A DNA stretch of 63,981 bases, the filler included, from Globobulimina sp. (taxonomy: Eukaryota): assembly GCA_003354225.1 (NCBI GenBank). It is 50 parts of 50 records of this genome, joined end to end, with 100 filler letters (N's around TTAATTAATTAA, not from the genome) between each part and the next. Parts side by side here need not be neighbours in the genome. Positions count along the whole stretch, not along the records: positions 2,567 to 3,749 come from PIVH01021476.1; 49 more parts are not named here. One strand, 5' to 3'. Of this stretch, positions 1,599-37,084 are shown piece by piece. The notes under the pieces are model-generated. The model saw nothing but the letters and a program-made list of their open reading frames with translations, did not search any database and was not told the DNA's origin. The first letter of the stretch is position 1. Each line of letters starts with the position of its first letter. A program made the translations under genes and the position numbers.

Positions 1599-2213
1599 CT
1601 AGGATTTATAAAATTTAACAAACACCATGACTCCGACAAATATAAGTAGTCGAACAAGTACTCTCGACCAAATATTTGGCGGTTTATAAGGTACTTTGTA
1701 ATTTTTCCACGGAAAATCAATGCCATTTACATCATTTTGAACAATGGTTCGACCATTTCTTGCAAATACTTCACCAGTTTTACTATCCACAAATATCAAA
1801 CACGGTATGGACTGATTGAGATTTAACCTCGCATTCACATCTTTTCTTCGTTCAGTTTCGTTGAATGATATCGCGAACCAATCTGTATGCATTGAGCCAT
1901 AATATTCATCAAAAGATTCTCTTTCCTTATCCAATGATACCAATACTAATTTCAACGCTTTTTTCTTTTCCATCCAATTTGAATATCTCTCTTTTAATTC
2001 CGGTGTAAATTTGCGACATGGACCACACCAATGAGCTGAAAAATAGATACCAATCACTTCATTATCTTTACTTAAATCTGATAACGCAATTTTGCGACCA
2101 TTTTGATTGATTACATGAGTACCGCCCAATATTTGTTGTATGGTCGATGTCAACAATTCTGTGGTTTCTTTCCCCTCACTATGATCGTTTTTTGTCTTTT
2201 TCTTATTTGACAT
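1599..2213 (-). CDS. Nucleoredoxin/tryparedoxin-like thioredoxin with C-terminal membrane anchor
   Basis: GIYFSAHWCGPCRKFTP active site, VSLD, IPCLIFVD, GIDFPW; hydrophobic C-terminal helix. Confidence 0.9.
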   Translation of the reverse strand: MSNKKKTKNDHSEGKETTELLTSTIQQILGGTHVINQNGRKIALSDLSKDNEVIGIYFSAHWCGPCRKFTPELKERYSNWMEKKKALKLVLVSLDKERESFDEYYGSMHTDWFAISFNETERRKDVNARLNLNQSIPCLIFVDSKTGEVFARNGRTIVQNDVNGIDFPWKNYKVPYKPPNIWSRVLVRLLIFVGVMVFVKFYKS

Positions 2214-2264
2214 CGTTGAAACTCTTTTCGTCAGTACGCCAAGTTAAAAATCACACTTTGCGCA

Positions 2265-2466
2265 ATGTCGTCAACTGATCCTTTGGATTTAATACGCCTA
2301 TCAATTGACGAAAGAGTTTATGTGAAGTGTAGAGGAGGACGAGAAATCCGAGGTAAACTGCATGCGTATGATCCCCATTTAAATATGATACTGGAAGATG
2401 TTGAAGAAACTATAAAGGAAACAGAAATAGACGATTCATCGGGACATGAAAAGACAAAAACAACCA
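2265..2466 (+). CDS. LSM3: U6 snRNA-associated Sm-like protein LSm3 (3' truncated)
   Basis: [44 protein letters not shown] matches the LSm3 Sm1 motif. Confidence 0.93.
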
Positions 2467-2566: not shown

Positions 2567-3749
2567 ATGTGTTGGCAAAGCAAATTATAATCGATTTAGA
2601 AAAGACAACATTGGCATGATAATTATATTAAAATCAATGAAAAATCCAAAATTAAAAGTCATCGCTGCCAATACGCACTTATATTGGAACCCAAATATGA
2701 AAGATGTTAAATTATTTCAAACGTCTTCTTTTTTAAATTCTATTCAATGGGTCATAAATACACACAAATTGCACAAAGAAAATTATAAAATTATAATTGG
2801 TGGTGACTTTAATTCAAAACCAATGTCAAATGTTTACAAATTTGTTATTGACGGATTTATAAACATTAATATCAATAATAATGAGTCAGCTGAATGCGAA
2901 GCAAAAACAAATGATAATATACAATTAAATAATGACAATATGAAAATAAAAAATAGCAATATATTGCGCATTATTTGTGACCGAGATTTGCGTAAAACAG
3001 CGCAATGGTTAGCTTTAATGGAGATAGATTCAGCATATTTTAGTGGCAATTCAACCAAAAATTATATGAAATTGTTTTCCATCGCAAAGCGAGAAAATAG
3101 GATAATTATTACACGAAATACACAAATAATTTCACGCAGTGAATGTCCCAAATTTTTGTTAATTGGAGCTCGTGAGACCCAACGCCAAGCATACAAACAT
3201 GTCGTTAATTATTTTGGAATTAAAGTTGATTTCAAACAAAAACAATGCCGGGAAAACATTTTAAATTGTTTAAAATGTCCAAAATGTTTGGAATCGTTGA
3301 AACAAACAACATTGACGGACATAAAACATTTATTAACAAATGATCGCAATCCTTATTTATTGGAAGGTAAAACATGCAAAGGAATACCATTAGAATTTTA
3401 TCAATGTGTTAGCAAAGAATGTGCGCATTTGGCGTATCATAGACAGGGATGGCTGGATAGATTACATTGTCGGAGACAGCAGCATTACAATGGTACAGTT
3501 GCAACAATTGCAACCAAAAAAAATAGTAATAATAAATATAAGACGACTGCACAAATATTGAAAGATCACATTTATCGAAAACGGAGGCCCATTATCATCG
3601 GGATTGAAATTATGGAAGGTTCACTAAAAAAATATGATCGGATGTTTGCTATAAAAAAGGACGTCGACAATGAGGAGAATAATATTTTAGATTTAGGATT
3701 ATTGTCAGAAATGGAATGTGATAATAAAAAAATATTAGTTGCTAAGAAA
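2567..3749 (+). CDS. CCR4/Angel/PDE12-like EEP nuclease fragment followed in frame by a Mut7-C (PIN-like + Zn ribbon) domain; both ends truncated
   Basis: RKDNIG..ANTHLYWNP..KLFQ..GGDFNS EEP motifs; then ICDRDLRKTAQWL..ID, AKRENRIIITRN, CPKC, FYQC..C Mut7-C motifs (~2964-3440). Confidence 0.8.
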
Positions 3750-5267: not shown

Positions 5268-6315
5268 TTATAGAAACGAAATATCAGGAAAAATAAAAGG
5301 AGTTGGTTTATCATCAAAATCTGTTAAATTACGTGAGCTGCAATGTGATAGAAACTTAGCTATATCGAAACGTGATAAATCATCTGCATACAGATTTTCT
5401 TTTGTTTTTATGTAATTTATTTTAACTCTTAACTTGTATTCAAAACAAAACCATACTGTCCATCTCACGCAGTCCATTAAGAACATATCATTCGTATTTT
5501 TAGAAATAAAAATTGCTTCACAATGTTGATTATCACAACGAAGATTAATATCAATATTTTGTTTAAAATAATGTTTAAATGTCCATAGTGCTGCCACTAT
5601 GGCTAATGCCTCAAAATGAGCAATATGCTGTTCTTGAGTATATAAAATGGTTTTGTCTTTGTTCAAATACTTGGAATATATCGTCATGAATTGTGCTGGA
5701 ACTGTATTAAAAGCCCAATGACCTTCAAAATACGCACCAATTCCAGGCTGCCAATTGGGTTTCTCACCATTTGTGGCGCCATCGGTATATAAATTTACTT
5801 TTGGTCTATTACCAAATCCAACGACATCATATATATTGACACGATCGCAAATATACATATATTTAATCCACAAATTTGCGTCTTTAATTTCATGCTCACA
5901 AAAATTCATCAATGTAATCTCATCACCATAAATACGTTTATGTGCCGTAAGTTTCATCCTCATTCTACGTAAAAAAGCCGTGCCAGGCCACATAAGAGCT
6001 GCCATCCACGTCAATGTTCCCATTAATGATTCATACTTATCACTCATTAACATTCTGCAGCTGACGATTATAATTAATATTAATAGACATTTCTTCTTTT
6101 TATCCGGACCAGGTCCGACTGTCATGTCTGTGGAGTCATAAATTAATCCACAAACTTCCATAATCCACGATACTAATTTGCGTTTTTCCTCTTTTTCAAT
6201 ATAACCGCATGAATTGAGGAATTCAAAAAATTTGTTCATCAAAAATGACTCTCGTTTGCGATTCGAGAAAGGGAATGATTTTATAAAACCAATATGATCG
6301 TCGATATACACCAAA
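5268..6315 (-). mobile_element. RT C-terminus plus RNase H of an Ngaro/DIRS-like retrotransposon
   Basis: VYIDD RT motif, CGLIYDS, GTLTWMA; RNase H motifs LYTDGA, IAHFEALA, CDN, NLYADDLSR; stop follows directly with no methyltransferase domain. Confidence 0.9.
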
Positions 6316-6689: not shown

Positions 6690-6735
6690 GATTGAAGTTC
6701 ACACACTTCCTTTTTAAAAAACGAGCTTGGTGGTG

Positions 6736-7413
6736 ATGAGATCGATAAAACAAGCCATTCCGTCTCCGTATATATTTAATATTAATCGAACAGCTTTAAT
6801 TATGATTGATTTCCAACGCTGTTTTATGGAATCGAATGGATTTGCAGAATTATTGGGACATAATGTGTCTATATTACATGATGCCGTTGAACCAGCAAAG
6901 AATATATTAAACATTGCACGAAGACATAATATGATGATATTCCATACAATGTATTCATATAAAGATGATTTAACAGATTGTCCATCATCAAGACAACAAC
7001 TGAATGATCAATATAATATCGGTGATTATGGACCATTGGAAACGGGAAGAATTGGAATCCGAAATGAATATAATACAAATATTATTGATCAATTATCGCC
7101 ATTAAATAATTCAAATGAAATATTAATATATAAACCAGGATTTGGTGCATTTTATGAAACGAATTTAAATGAACATTTAATAAATAACTCAATCACTCAT
7201 TTATTCTTTGCTGGTGTTACTACAGAAATTTGTGTTGAAACAACAATACGAGAGGCAAATGACAGAGGATATGAATGTTTATTATTAGATGATGCAACGT
7301 CAAGTTATTATCCTCAATTTAAAGAAAATACGATTAAAACCATAACATCACATAATGGCATTATTGCCAAAACTGCAAAAACAAATGATGCTATACAAGC
7401 AATGACCACATAA
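6736..7413 (+). CDS. Isochorismatase-family cysteine hydrolase, triuret/biuret hydrolase (TrtA/BiuH)-like
   Basis: IDFQ catalytic Asp, KPG catalytic Lys, GVTTEICV catalytic Cys, REANDRGY, IGD.GP.GR, SSYYPQF; no introns. Confidence 0.85.
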   Translation: MRSIKQAIPSPYIFNINRTALIMIDFQRCFMESNGFAELLGHNVSILHDAVEPAKNILNIARRHNMMIFHTMYSYKDDLTDCPSSRQQLNDQYNIGDYGPLETGRIGIRNEYNTNIIDQLSPLNNSNEILIYKPGFGAFYETNLNEHLINNSITHLFFAGVTTEICVETTIREANDRGYECLLLDDATSSYYPQFKENTIKTITSHNGIIAKTAKTNDAIQAMTT

Positions 7414-8980: not shown

Positions 8981-9777
8981 TCACATTCCAAATTTTCTCC
9001 ATTGGCAGCAAAGATGTCATTAATGTCAGAGTCTACAACATTTTCCAGCATATCTGCACCATCCCCACCTAGACTCTGACCTTGTTCACATGGATCAGTG
9101 GGACAGTGGATGATTTGAATTGACCCGGTGCTGGCTTCACCATCAGCACATGACAAATTGAGTGTACCTGACTCCTCTTCTCCATTCAACAGACACTCAT
9201 GATTGATCAATGCTTCAGACAGTTCTTTCAGTCTCACTTCACCTTTGGCAACAAACACATCAACAAGTGTTCCATAGGAAGGAGGTAAACTGTGCAACAA
9301 AATAGCAACTTGATCTTGCTCATCAACAGGGGCATCCAAAACAGCTAACCTTTGAGCGAGTTCATTGAGCTCTTTGATATGGCATTGCATGGACTGACTT
9401 GACTGCATTTCGAAACCAAACAATTGACACTTCAGATCCATCTTATTGGGCAAAGATGATCGTTCAAAATGACCAAGCAACACTGTCCAAGCTTCATAGG
9501 GAGTGGTGACATTATGGGATACAAACAGATTGAGAAACTGTGTTGATACTGTCTGACACAAAATAGACATGACACGGGCATTATTAACAACATAGTCCTC
9601 CTGTCGATTAACAAAAGTAGGAACGTCCTCACCGGTATTCCGCACAGGGGGAACCACATGTCCAACACACAGACGCCACAGTCTTTTCACAATTAAGTAA
9701 TTTCTGATTTGCATCTTCCATATGGGCCAATTGTCACGGGTAAGTTTGTCAATGTTAGGCAGTATGTCTTCGTCCAT
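8981..9777 (-). mobile_element. Ty1/copia gag (DUF4219 + UBN2-like), 3' truncated
   Basis: IDKLTRDNWPIWKMQIRNYL...LW, AWTVL, ILLHSLPPSY, EALINHE. Confidence 0.88.
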
Positions 9778-10098
9778 GACTGTAACACAATCAACCAGCC
9801 ACAAATGTTCCAACAAACAATAGGAACTTCAAAGAGAAGACAACAGAGCAGTGAAAACGACTTATCTGGGACTTGTTTAGACAGAAATACGAAAATCACG
9901 CTTCCACATTCAACAGTGACCGATATCCAAACACAAATGAAATGGCAATCGCGTCGGCAAAATAAACCACAGAAAAATCCACAAATGTCCGAAATAATGT
10001 TTTACGAATCTTCAACAATCAGGGCAGACGACAGAAAAGAGTCTCCTTTGTCAGATTGAGAAAACAAAATTCTTGAGGACGGTTAGAATAGCTACTAA

Positions 10099-11544: not shown

Positions 11545-12583
11545 CCAACGCAATCCATTATATCTTCTGAGTCCTGCTCGTGTACACAAGACAGAAATGA
11601 ATATGTCTCCTCCGCGTCGACCGGACATTGTTCTGCTTACATGAACTGTCCATGGAATCTGGTGCCGTGTCCTGATGGGTGTTGGAAGCCAATCGGACAA
11701 AATGATTTTATCATTGGCTCGTTTGACTGGACAGGTTTTGATTATAAAGGCGAACCAACTCCGTATAGTTGGCCTGATATAAACTCACATTTTGGAGTGA
11801 ATGATATGGCGGGTATTTTTATGTTAAATTTTTAATGTTTTATATTATTTTTTGATTGTTTGTGGTGGATAAGGTTTCCCAAAGGATATGTATTGGTATT
11901 ATAGGGCGGCTTGGACCAATATTACGGATGAGATCATATTATATATTATGCCAAATACGTGGAATAATGATACGAATACAAACCCGGAGAAAGTGCGCGT
12001 GTATACCAATTGTGAATATGTGGAGTTATTTGTAAATAATAATTCTGTGAGTGGTGGACGCCAAAAAGTGGAAGCATTGGCATATTACGCATTGAATGTG
12101 CGATGGAGTTCAGGTGCGATAAGTTGTAATTGTTTAGATGCAAATAATAAGATATTGGCAAGCACGCGAATAGAAACTACCGATTCGGCGTCAAGTATTG
12201 CATTGGAATGGGAGTATCCATATAATAGTGAGAGTGCAGAGAATAATACGATAATTGGTGATGGCCAGGATGTGGCACTAATAAATGTTTTTGTGGTGGA
12301 TGATAAAATGCGAATTGTACCAAATTCAAAGAATTTAATCAGTTTCTCGGTTGATAATGAGTCTGTTGCGTTTATATTGGGAGTGAGTAATGGTGATCCT
12401 TCGTGTCATGAACGTGATAAAGCAAGTCAACGGTCTGTATATCATGGCAAGGCCAGAGTTTTGGTGCAATCAATGTTAAATAAAGGTGGTAGAGTAACAT
12501 TAACTGCAACGTCGGATGGATTAAAAACTGCCTCCATACAAATTAATGTAAATGCACCACAGCAACAAATAATTACCATTTAA
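11545..12583 (+). CDS. GH2 beta-galactosidase-like glycoside hydrolase, C-terminal part; intron 11813-11873
   Basis: SSE, GSFDWTGFDYKGEPTP..WP..SHFG..DMAG/FPKD, VYTNCEYVELFVN, GVSNGDP. Confidence 0.9.
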
Positions 12584-15726: not shown

Positions 15727-15794
15727 AGTTTGCAGTGTCGATCTTTTTTTAAGCATTTCCAGGTCCAAAATAAAGTCACCCTCACCTCAGTCAC

Positions 15795-16430
15795 ATGATG
15801 ACAACAAAGAAGCTCTTAAAAGTCGCAATATTCGGTGCAGGTCGTATGGGAACATTCCATGCTCAAAACATTGACGAAAATATAGAATATGCATACATTG
15901 ATACTATAGTTGATACAAATTTAGATGCAGCTAAAAGACTATCAACTTTATTAAAAAACACTGCAAATATCAAAGTCTCATCAGATTATAAATCAGTGTT
16001 AGATAATAATAATATTGATTGTATTGTAATTGCAGTAACAACAACAGCCGCGGATCGAAGTAAGATTGCAATATATGCATTGAATAAACATATTGCTGTA
16101 TTTATTGAAAAACCTTTAGCATCCACATTACAACAAGGCATTGATATTCATGAGGCAGTCACGGCAAATAATACATTATTTCAAATTGGTTTTATGCGTC
16201 TGTTTGATACGGATTTAAATAAATTAGCAAACTTATCCGCAGATAATACAACAATCGGCAAACCATATTTAATTCGTGTTGTTTCGTATGATGGTATTAT
16301 TCAAGACACGCAATATTACAAATATTCTGGTGGAATATTCAAAGATATGATGTGCCATGATTTAGATTCATTGTACTACATATTCTCGAGTTGCTATTTT
16401 TATGACAAATATAAGACAGAAGTAACTCAA
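15795..16430 (+). CDS. Gfo/Idh/MocA oxidoreductase, myo-inositol 2-dehydrogenase-like, exon 1
   Basis: GAGRMG, FIEKP, GFMRLFD, SGGIFKDMMCHDLD; GTAAGT donor at 16431. Confidence 0.85.
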
Positions 16431-16467
16431 GTAAGTAATAATAATAATAATGTTAATGACGCGAATA

Positions 16468-16572
16468 TTTCAGCGTCAGATTTTTATTGTTTCTGAGAAA
16501 CGAAGGCAAACCTATATTGTTTTTACCTTTATCAGTCACCAGAAACGGTTTGCTTATACCTTGCCCCAATAA
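16468..16572. mobile_element. MITE-like repeat inside an intron; inverted copy of 57752-57900
   Basis: TTTCAGCGTCAGATTTTTATTG terminus and internal sequence match the reverse complement of the element in contig 46. Confidence 0.85.
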
Positions 16573-19465: not shown

Positions 19466-20092
19466 ATGAATGATCGCGACGTAGACTTTTTCAATCCTAA
19501 GGAACTACTAACTATTGTTCCAAGTTAATTTCTGTTGTGAACATTCTTGAATTTCTTTATTTCAAATTTGTATATTTAATGTATTTAATAATTAGATGAA
19601 AGGGAAACTGCAGTGATAACTCATCAAAAATTAACAGATATATTGAAAGAAAACAATGTGAGACCAACTGGCTTAGATTTAACTCGCGAATATTATATAT
19701 TTGAAACATTAAATAAAGTTATTTCGCATATAAACACTGGTGATATGAGTGAAAGATCAATATTATTAAAAAGAGCAGAAAGAGAGTTACATTCAACAGT
19801 ATCAACATGGAAAATATTATCAAATCAAGCAACAATATATGGATTAACCAAAGTAAATCAAAATCAATCGGAAATAGAACAATTAAAATCTGAAATTGAA
19901 CAACTAAAACAGAAAAAAAATGATCTAAGAAAAAAACGAAATTTAACAGATAAACAATATGATGACATGCTAATATCATCAAAAAATGAAATAAATGATT
20001 TACAAACAGAATGTCAAAAAACAGCGCAAAAATATCAGCAACAAAATATATCAAATACACAGATATTACAAGAATATAAATCTGCTCTTTGA
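19466..20092 (+). CDS. Divergent axonemal inner-arm dynein light chain p28 (DNALI1)-like; intron 19524-19595
   Basis: RPTGLDLTRE...ERSILLKRAERE...YG..K plus coiled coil aligns by eye to p28 RETGICPIRE...ERGLLLLRVRDE...FG.RK; intron restores the frame. Confidence 0.65.
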
Positions 20093-35902: not shown

Positions 35903-37084
35903 ATTTTAGCGGTTTCAGATGAAGGAAGATACGAATGTAAGGTGAAGGAGATTAAACTTGAAGATACGCCAATGTTACAATGTAATAAATATGAGTTTGA
36001 ATCATGTAATGTATCCGCAGTGAGTTTAGAATATTTTTGGAACATCACAACCTTTAACAATAATGACCAGGTAAAAGCTGCATTTACCATTGCACCAAAT
36101 AGCGGCAGTATCGCGCCCAAAGCAAAGCAACTATTTGTTGTCTTATTTAGTCCCAAAACACCTGGACAATATCAATGCGAATTGCAGTCAACAATAACTC
36201 CATTAAATCCACAACAATCGGCATCGCCATTGATAATACCAATAATTTGTAAGTCAACCCGACCGATTTGTCATTTTGAATTTGCTGATTTCGCATATTC
36301 AGAATATATCACCTCTGGGATTCGTAAGCCATCCGTGGTTGGCCCAAATGGTAAAATTGGAGAATCACTGCCGCCAAACATTCGTGTATTGCAAAGTAAA
36401 TCATTGGGCATTCAAGTTCGAAATAAATTACGTTTTATTGTATTAAATACATTGGATCAAAGCTATAATTTTGAGTGGAAACCGCAGAGAGTACCAAATT
36501 GTTTCCGCTGTTTAACGCTTTCTGGCGAGATATTGCCGGGCAATAAATATACGATGATATTTGAATATAAACCCAAAAAATCGGAAATAATGGAATCATT
36601 TTGGGAGTTTCATATTGATTCGCATCAATATATTGTACCATTTTTGATTGTTGGCAGTGTATTCGAACCCGATGTACGTTTAAGTCATAGTAATATTAAG
36701 TTTTTACCTCAATTGGTTGGTACCTCCTCGCTGCAAATTGTTCATATTGAAAATACAGAAAATACATCATTTGAATGGTGGATTGATAGAAATGCATTTT
36801 TAAAATCTATTGCAAAATATCGATTGTCAACGGATAACAATGAAACAGATAAATATAATAATACTGGAATGGTAATACATAAGTCAACATCTGCTGGAAT
36901 GCCATTAATTATATCCACATTTAGTGGCACCATTGAAGCAAATTCATCATTTAATATTGAATTAACATTTAAGCCATTACGCGAATTACAGTATAATTTT
37001 AATATTACATTTCATGTCAAGAATAAGCCAGGAATTACAATGTTAAATGTCAAAGGCGAAGGATTTATGATTCATCCAGAAATT
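35903..37084 (+). CDS. HYDIN: Hydin (axonemal central-pair protein), internal fragment
   Basis: Tandem ASH/Ig-like domains: FTIAP.SG.I.P, CHFE...YITSG.R, FRCLT.SG.I.PG, ESFWEF.I, PFL.VG...EP, LNVKGEG. Confidence 0.85.

Follow-up and report, generated by a model that had tools for sequence, protein, structure and literature searches.

A fragment of a eukaryotic nuclease gene was found in a window of 63,981 bases from Globobulimina sp. (assembly GCA_003354225.1), the window being the whole stretch of DNA that was analysed. The window consists of 50 contigs of 1180-1183 bp each, sorted by length and joined by spacers that are runs of N around TTAATTAATTAA. Positions 2567-3749 are exactly one whole contig of 1183 bp (PIVH01021476.1), which carries a single open reading frame (ORF), referred to here as P0001. 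Since the contigs are unrelated and spacer-joined, the neighbours of 2567-3749 in the window carry no genomic context. P0001 reads from an EEP nuclease domain into a Mut7-C domain and then into a beta-barrel resembling domain IV of eIF5B. In the family to which P0001 belongs, the Mut7-C domain is nested inside the EEP domain. With a probability of about 0.72, P0001 is an internal fragment of a gene whose product has one EEP catalytic centre together with a nested, RNA-holding Mut7-C domain and an eIF5B-type barrel.

One reading frame through an EEP domain and a Mut7-C domain

The ORF has 394 codons on the plus strand (2568..3749), is open at both contig ends, and was delimited by its frame and by tblastn. 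The +2 frame from 2568 has no stop codon, while the other five frames have 14-44 stops each; 394 open codons at the base composition of the contig would occur by chance with P ~1e-16. When P0017, a full-length relative, was used as a tblastn query against the contig, it aligned with 2592-3497 at 59.5% identity (E-value (E) 1e-120) and with 3507-3749 at 48% identity (E 6e-14). P0001 is thus a piece from the interior of a larger gene. The contigs of run X8 come from a relative of about 94% identity; 22 of the 35 listed differences are at the third codon position and 18 are synonymous. The same relative has an in-frame insertion of 6 nucleotides (nt) behind 3343 (runs X6 and X8; region 3302-3749), which falls between the two pairs of zinc-ribbon cysteines, in the loop that connects them. 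The absence of stop codons, the bias towards third positions and synonymous changes, and the in-frame insertion together indicate that the frame is coding throughout.

Residues 7-100 of P0001 (2586..2867, plus strand) were assigned, by phmmer searches against the PDB and with EEP segments, to the middle of an EEP phosphodiesterase domain of the CCR4/ANGEL/PDE12 type. Enzymes of this type remove poly(A) tails, 2',3'-cyclic phosphates or 2'-5' oligoadenylates, and they usually find their substrates via partner proteins or appended domains. The best PDB matches of residues 10-100 were PDE12 (4z0v, E 9.7e-9), ANGEL2 (6rvz, 1e-8), and yeast Ccr4 (4b8c, 4.5e-8). All three catalytic residues that can be seen on the contig are present, namely the His of the NTH motif (NTHLYW, 2670-2687) and the Asp and Asn of the GDFNS motif (GGDFNS, 2799-2816).

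The EEP part is followed by an Asn/Lys-rich low-complexity linker (residues 101-129; 2868..2954, plus strand), where the insertion into the EEP loop starts. The linker varies in length and sequence in alignments A1 and A3. The Mut7-C domain, composed of an alpha/beta part and a zinc ribbon, was then delimited by Pfam and by segment phmmer to residues 130-306 (2955..3485, plus strand). Pfam PF01927 matched residues 134-251 (nt 2967-3320) with E 8.3e-11 and 42.6 bits against a cut-off of 23.3. The zinc-ribbon cysteines are found in CPKC (3276-3287) and in a C-x4-C motif within 3402-3422; in the relatives, the four cysteine columns are conserved in 92/94, 89/91, 82/83, and 86/87 sequences.

An earlier note, made from the DNA of this window alone, had described an EEP domain with GDFNS continuing in one frame into Mut7-C with a zinc ribbon, and this is borne out by the uninterrupted frame, the PF01927 match, and the cysteines. 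Its range for Mut7-C, 2964-3440, agrees with the Pfam match and with cysteines up to 3422. The HMM scan that it proposed gave a divided answer: PF01927 exceeded its cut-off on the fragment itself, and PF03372 gave no match on P0001 at E up to 1 and was found in full-length P0017 (35.2 bits against a cut-off of 24.5). The EEP part of P0001 was picked up in Pfam by Exo_endo_phos_2 alone, at 16.4 bits, below the cut-off of 27.4. As the same note had also stated, the later EEP motifs do not appear on the contig; no IDYI/LDY-like or SDH motif was found in P0001 up to the contig end at 3749.

Completion of the EEP domain in full-length relatives

Where is the rest of the EEP domain? A search of 5.8 billion proteins for relatives gave 15 matches of near length and 2 longer ones. 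P0017 has 793 amino acid residues and matches P0001 with E 4.6e-137 and 50% identity over 96% of the query. Its parts are arranged in the order of the N-terminal EEP part (EEP-N, up to GGDFNSQP), a linker, Mut7-C (Pfam, residues 272-411), an extra beta-rich segment, GTP_EFTU_D4 (residues 574-662, E 3.9e-12), and the C-terminal EEP part (EEP-C). The last part reads 'LKSVY...TNHTKGFSGCLDYLF...PSDHIPIK' and includes LDYLF and SDH. P0109, an independent protein of 251 residues, has the extra segment, the barrel, and EEP-C with LDYLF. More than one copy of Mut7-C may lie between the two EEP halves: P0004 (668 residues) has two nested copies, P0019 has three in tandem, and P0009 has one. Thus, the nesting of Mut7-C in EEP, which the earlier note had suspected from the missing motifs, is real in this family, since EEP resumes after the insert in P0017 (LDYLF and SDH) and P0109 (LDYLF), and 57 of the 164 proteins collected have the parts in that order. 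The completion of the EEP fold in the gene of P0001 itself would follow by analogy with these relatives.

P0017 was modelled with AlphaFold as the first row of a 144-row alignment, giving a mean predicted local distance difference test score (pLDDT) of 77.2 and a predicted template modelling score of 0.64. The pLDDT values were 90-98 for residues 10-220 and 700-793, about 85-93 for Mut7-C, about 70-90 for the barrel, and below 50 for the equivalent of the low-complexity linker. In a Foldseek search, the EEP part of the model matched CNOT6L (5dv2, E 4.8e-18), ANGEL2 (1.5e-16), PDE12 (1e-15), and Nocturnin (6.4e-13). In alignments to the PDE12 chain, residues 14-229 of P0017 correspond to positions 128-354, and residues 177-233 of P0109 correspond to positions 364-413. 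It follows from these alignments that about 470 residues of P0017 occupy the place of about ten residues in PDE12.

The EEP catalytic residues that lie outside the contig (Asn, Glu, the Asp of LDY, and the Asp and His of SDH) are all present in P0017. In the family, the N-terminal Asn is conserved in 106/106 sequences, the Glu in 113/117, the NTH His in 139/139, the GDFNS Asp in 141/141 and its Asn in 140/141, the LDY Asp in 91/96, and the SDH Asp and His in 92/98 and 94/98, respectively. This family-wide conservation indicates that catalysis takes place at the EEP site. In phmmer searches of the PDB, the EEP part of P0017 matched ANGEL2 (6rvz, 1.8e-21), CNOT6 (7ax1, 3.3e-20), PDE12 (4z0v, 3.7e-20), and Ccr4 (4b8c, 6.8e-20). 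Canonical CCR4 has an N-terminal leucine-rich repeat (LRR), which binds CAF1. No LRR was detected by Pfam in full-length P0017, and its EEP domain begins close to the N-terminus, at about residue 10. Thus, the label 'CCR4-like' given in the earlier note is too specific, since ANGEL2, CNOT6, PDE12, and Ccr4 score alike and the full-length relative lacks the LRR.

Distribution of the nested architecture

Is this architecture common? When 1.84 billion representative sequences were searched exhaustively by phmmer with P0001, 985 matched at E up to 1e-3, 90 at E up to 1e-10, and 4 at E up to 1e-30. The architectures of the 164 collected proteins were typed by phmmer with segments of P0017, P0009, and P0018, each part being written as a letter. 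The 57 proteins with EEP-N, one to three Mut7-C copies, and EEP-C comprise 46 N-M-C, 8 N-N-M-C, and one each of N-M-M-C, N-M-M-M-C, and N-M-X-D-C. In another 50, EEP-N is followed by Mut7-C and EEP-C was undetected (39 N-M, 6 N-M-M, 2 N-N-M, 1 N-N-N-M, and 2 N-M-D), many of these being fragments. The remainder are 35 plain N-C proteins, 16 with the N part only, and 6 other partial forms. In Pfam, 61 of the 63 proteins in alignment A4 matched Mut7-C, 54 matched Exo_endo_phos, and 4 matched GTP_EFTU_D4. A cluster of 120 members in the ESM Atlas bears an automatic name that combines the two families; all of its members (100%) are Eukaryota, with Bacillariophyta the most frequent group, and P0009 and P0017 score 0.96 and 0.84 against it. 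The taxonomy of the nested family given here is based on these two ESM Atlas rows. Judging from these sequences, Mut7-C nested in EEP is a widespread architecture that appears to define a large eukaryotic subfamily.

A tree was built from the EEP columns alone, the insert columns being excluded, with the 75 rows of alignment A2 that fill at least 150 N-part and at least 45 C-part columns (69 of 144 rows were dropped). The label 'nested' requires 2 changes on this tree, as compared with a mean of 21.7 after shuffling, and none of 500 shuffles was as low; the sample is biased, since both domains were present in the query by which it was collected. A single branch (SH-aLRT 85, unstarred) has all but one of the 26 plain proteins on the same side. 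The nearest EEP relative of P0017 on the tree is the two-copy protein P0004, with which it forms a pair (SH-aLRT 90). The tree is compatible with one old insertion event.

The earlier note had stated that it would be refuted by an architecture that is both widespread and already described. Half of this applies. Widespread it is; a published description of Mut7-C in an EEP/CCR4 protein was not found in a literature search conducted without subscription journals and supplements. The accessible parts of four papers report fusions of Mut7-C with a DEDD exonuclease, with ubiquitin-like domains, and with an aminoacyl-tRNA editing domain, and no EEP fusion is among those mentioned there (PMC5499597, PMC11347159, PMC1779556, PMC4075521). 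The idea that plant CCR4 proteins contain Mut7-C was dropped, as no literature support was found and a rice paper mentions no such domain.

The two parts of the nested module

TRD is the usual consensus form of a motif of Mut7-C. P0001 retains the first Asp of the domain (RIICDRD, 2967-2987), as do 94 of 108 nested copies, and it has TRN in the place of TRD (3111-3119). Across 103 aligned copies from nested proteins, this position holds Ser in 82, Asn in 17, and Asp in none. The acidic site of an active PIN-like RNase is not found here, since the TRD Asp is absent; of the positions counted, only one has a conserved acid, which makes a two-metal site of the PIN type unlikely. According to the accessible part of the work of Busetto et al., the structure of the C-terminal domain (CTD) of MUT-7 has no significant similarity to PIN domains, and RNA binding was assigned to the CTD; deletion of MUT7-C lowered RNA affinity 6-8-fold and slowed RNA degradation by MUT-7 and EXD3 (PMC11347159). 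Because the TRD position is never Asp and because of this published role of MUT-7, the nested Mut7-C is most likely an RNA-binding arm and not a second nuclease. From the TRN of this contig, the earlier note had suggested that RNA may be bound but not cleaved by the insert, which is in line with the 103 copies.

In a structural comparison, the model of P0002, the closest relative of P0001, matched the CTD of Caenorhabditis elegans MUT-7 (8q66_A) with Z 7.5 and a root-mean-square deviation (rmsd) of 4.8 Å over 139 aligned residues. A phmmer search of the PDB with the Mut7-C segment of P0001 gave only chance matches to LIM domains (E ~0.9) and no solved MUT-7 chain.

After a short linker (residues 307-319; 3486..3524, plus strand; alignment A3), residues 320-394 (3525..3749, plus strand) were assigned through Pfam PF14578 and the PDB to a beta-barrel resembling domain IV of eIF5B, of which roughly the first three quarters are present. 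At the place of the linker, P0017, P0003, and P0109 hold the extra beta-rich segment of about 90 residues, which is absent from P0001; in P0017 (residues 470-560) it was modelled with low to moderate confidence and has no Pfam family match. In P0001, where the contig end cuts the domain, PF14578 (GTP_EFTU_D4) was matched with E 1.1e-3 and 19.3 bits against a cut-off of 23.8, and residues 334-394 matched eIF5B in the PDB (4n3g, E 1.6e-3). The complete barrels of P0017, P0002, and P0003 exceed the PF14578 cut-off with 46.4, 40.3, and 28.2 bits, respectively. P0109 matched human eIF5B (7tql) with E 6.4e-6 over about 100 residues, the common motifs being KIL..[HY]I[YF]..R.P[VI][IV].GV, D.G, [IV]C[IV]K, and [YF]GR.F. 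In Foldseek, the barrel matched the aIF5B C-terminal domain (7zag_7, E 7.6e-4, 26% identity) and 7tql (rmsd 3.5 Å, 89 columns). The barrel is homologous to eIF5B domain IV. No GTPase domain or EF-Tu domain 2 was detected by Pfam in P0017, P0002, or P0003. Among the proteins collected, only P0001, P0002, P0003, P0017, P0021, and P0109 carry the barrel. The domain list of the earlier note, correct for EEP and Mut7-C, had missed it.

According to the accessible text of PMC4236685, eIF5B domain IV binds the methionylated CCA end of the initiator tRNA.

The layout of the P0002 model, with an alpha/beta domain, a long helix, and a barrel, resembles that of eIF5B domains III-IV, which may be coincidental. 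Homology of the whole insert to eIF5B III-IV was considered and rejected: Foldseek aligned the P0002 model over 316-337 columns with E 2.8e-5 (4n3n), but the rmsd was 18-23 Å.

Proposed mechanism and alternative explanations

The full-length protein would be a Mg2+-dependent EEP phosphodiesterase of the CCR4/ANGEL/PDE12 group, in which the loop after the strand and helix of GDFNS has been expanded by a nested module. The module of this lineage has Mut7-C, an alpha/beta domain with a zinc ribbon in which the second acid of the PIN-like site has been lost, as its first part and, as its second, a beta-barrel that stems from domain IV of eIF5B. Downstream of it, the LDY and SDH motifs complete the EEP fold in relatives, and presumably also in the gene of P0001. 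The single EEP site may act on the 3' ends of RNA, either as a 3' exonuclease/deadenylase or as a 2',3'-cyclic phosphatase. The nested domains may hold the RNA over the EEP site, in the way that MUT7-C raises the RNA affinity and activity of MUT-7 and EXD3. A more specific version, which I consider tentative and rather doubtful, is that the captured eIF5B domain IV and the dead Mut7-C aim the EEP site at the 3' ends of tRNAs or tRNA-like RNAs, so that the enzyme trims, repairs, or destroys CCA or aminoacyl ends. If true, eIF5B domain IV would here have been recruited for the first time to a protein other than a translation factor.

Several observations weigh against the proposal of a single EEP centre with a nested RNA-holding module. 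The contig breaks off within the barrel, and any C-terminal EEP part of the P0001 gene would lie beyond its end. The closest relative, P0002 (65-68% identical), stops just before the point at which EEP resumes in P0017, and the EEP C part was not detected for P0005, whose longest contig is 24.9 kb; the gene models of P0002 and P0005 may have been cut at an intron, or these may be real truncated forms. No aligned independent contig bridges 2933-2980. Since the scores for ANGEL2, CNOT6, PDE12, and Ccr4 are nearly equal (1.8e-21 to 6.8e-20), the subfamily and the substrate class are not readable from similarity. Lastly, the Z of 7.5 between the P0002 model and MUT-7 is of middling size and tied with those of generic alpha/beta folds (Z 7.8).

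The endings of the relatives raise the alternative that the gene ends after the barrel, in which case the EEP half would be a dead remnant and the product would serve solely in RNA binding or as an adaptor. P0002 ends with 'YPNLKLNKLIKI' exactly where P0017 runs on into 'LKSVY...', and the 50 proteins of 164 with undetected EEP-C would fit such a truncation. However, NTHLYWNPNM.DVKLFQT and GGDFNSKP are nearly identical in P0001, P0002, and P0017, which fits selection on the active site, and P0017 and P0109 of the same clade have the C part. Moreover, many of the N-M proteins are short fragments, introns would shorten predicted proteins, and at least two N-M rows (P0046 and P0055) have the C-part columns filled in A2. 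A truncated EEP is therefore considered unlikely. An error of assembly, in which an EEP piece was misjoined to a Mut7-C/barrel piece in the low-complexity region at about 2870-2980, would also produce the order of domains seen on the contig. The junction stretch is indeed A-rich and of low complexity, and the contigs of run X2 stop at 2932 and restart at 2981, leaving the gap unbridged. Nevertheless, the run contigs have no joints or loose ends at the junction, and the junction is colinear at 44-65% identity in P0002 (from EukProt), P0017 (encoded on an 8251-bp ENA contig), and P0004, while dozens of more distant proteins match residues ~8-245 of the query as a single stretch. These matches make a chimera very improbable.

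The earlier note had further imagined a dual RNA 3'-processing enzyme, in which the Mut7-C insert would itself be an active PIN-like RNase beside the EEP site, giving two catalytic centres. The first acidic residue is kept in 94/108 copies, and older sequence analyses, in their accessible parts, class Mut7-C as an RNase of the PIN-like superfamily (PMC5499597, PMC1779556). The second acidic position, on the other hand, is never Asp in 103 copies, leaving a single conserved acid among the positions counted, and the solved MUT-7 CTD, in the accessible part of its description, lacks significant PIN similarity and is assigned to RNA binding (PMC11347159). A second active nuclease is thus quite improbable, although less so than a misassembly. 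In summary, the observation behind that note was confirmed and its reading as a nested domain was supported, while the dual nuclease and the CCR4 label were not, and the barrel had been overlooked.

With the single EEP centre and its nested RNA-holding module kept as the preferred explanation, the family appears to be an unstudied eukaryotic subfamily that carries an RNA-binding module inside a catalytic domain, at the place of a loop which solved structures show to be short, and the barrel appears to have been gained in one small clade. If the C-terminal part of the P0001 gene is confirmed, it would provide a natural domain insertion in the EEP fold with a testable guess on how the substrate is targeted, and Mut7-C would be seen to serve a 3' nuclease in a second system besides MUT-7. 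If the gene is truncated, a nuclease remnant would have been kept as a scaffold.

Coverage of the contig and the rest of the window

Positions 2567-2662 are not covered by any independent run contig aligned to the P0001 contig. At the other end, a contig of 1177 nt from run X2 covers 2981-3749 and extends about 408 nt past 3749. In run X1, a fraction of 0.89 of the sampled words was present, but only one record of 161 nt aligned, at 3506-3539. This stretch of 34 nt is common to short contigs of high depth in runs X1 and X2, which diverge on both sides of it, and is probably a short dispersed or shared repeat or a low-complexity match.

The contigs of the window have G+C contents of 24-46%. The other contigs contain eukaryotic genes, such as those for protein kinases, an axonemal dynein light chain, CFAP65, and a copia-type gag, and some bacterial-type enzymes. 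The axonemal dynein light chain was found at 19592-20089 (PF10211, E 6.6e-15), and Ig-like domains of CFAP65 were found at 35903-37084 (E 9e-20). The presence of these two genes indicates that the source organism builds cilia or flagella; by its sequences, the source is an AT-rich eukaryote with cilia or flagella. Uninterrupted, bacterial-looking ORFs on AT-rich contigs encode an isochorismatase (6718-7410), a glycoside hydrolase family 2 C-terminal domain (11873-12580), and a GFO_IDH_MocA oxidoreductase (15774-16493). These may result from gene transfer or contamination, or may be ordinary eukaryotic copies.

The copia-type gag lies at 8983-9828 on the minus strand (PF14223, E 3.3e-27). On a different contig, an ORF of 348 residues at 5271-6314 (minus strand) has no Pfam match at 1e-5. 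A thioredoxin-like gene of the nucleoredoxin type (1602-2243, minus strand) and an ORF that looks LSm-like by eye (2220-2466, plus strand) are divergent on the same contig, and the very short spacer between them suggests a compact genome. An Rfam scan of the window gave no match. When the other 49 contigs of the window were searched by tblastn with P0017, only chance-level matches were obtained (E 2.3 and 3.8), and two scans of metagenome contigs and one of genome contigs found no DNA of relatives.

Comparison with known systems

P0017 has the same EEP fold and catalytic motifs as CCR4, CNOT6, and CNOT6L. It differs from them in having no LRR by Pfam and in the loop that holds its insert of about 470 residues, which plain forms keep short, and 25 of 26 plain CCR4-type proteins stand apart from the nested ones on the EEP-only tree. 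ANGEL2, a 2',3'-cyclic phosphatase, and PDE12, a 2',5'-phosphodiesterase and mitochondrial deadenylase, give the best EEP sequence matches and share the lack of an LRR with P0017, but their solved chains have no nested domains.

The barrel resembles domain IV of eIF5B/aIF5B (PF14578) in both sequence homology and fold. In contrast to eIF5B, it is found here without a GTPase or other eIF5B domains, in a nuclease and not in a translation factor, with Mut7-C on one side and the EEP C part on the other. In addition, domain IV of eIF5B has two C-terminal helices according to the accessible text of PMC4236685, while none is predicted in the P0017 model, in which residues 673-690 have pLDDT below 50.

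In MUT-7/EXD3, a DEDDy 3'-5' exoribonuclease, a nuclease acting on RNA 3' ends is likewise joined to a Mut7-C domain with a zinc ribbon (PF01927). Mut7-C here likely assists the nuclease as an RNA-binding arm, which is also, in the accessible part of PMC11347159, its published role there. The nested Mut7-C is connected to the solved MUT-7 CTD only at the level of structure (Z 7.5). The two systems differ in the nuclease superfamily, which is EEP here and DEDD in MUT-7/EXD3, and in the position of Mut7-C, which is nested within the catalytic domain here and appended to it there.

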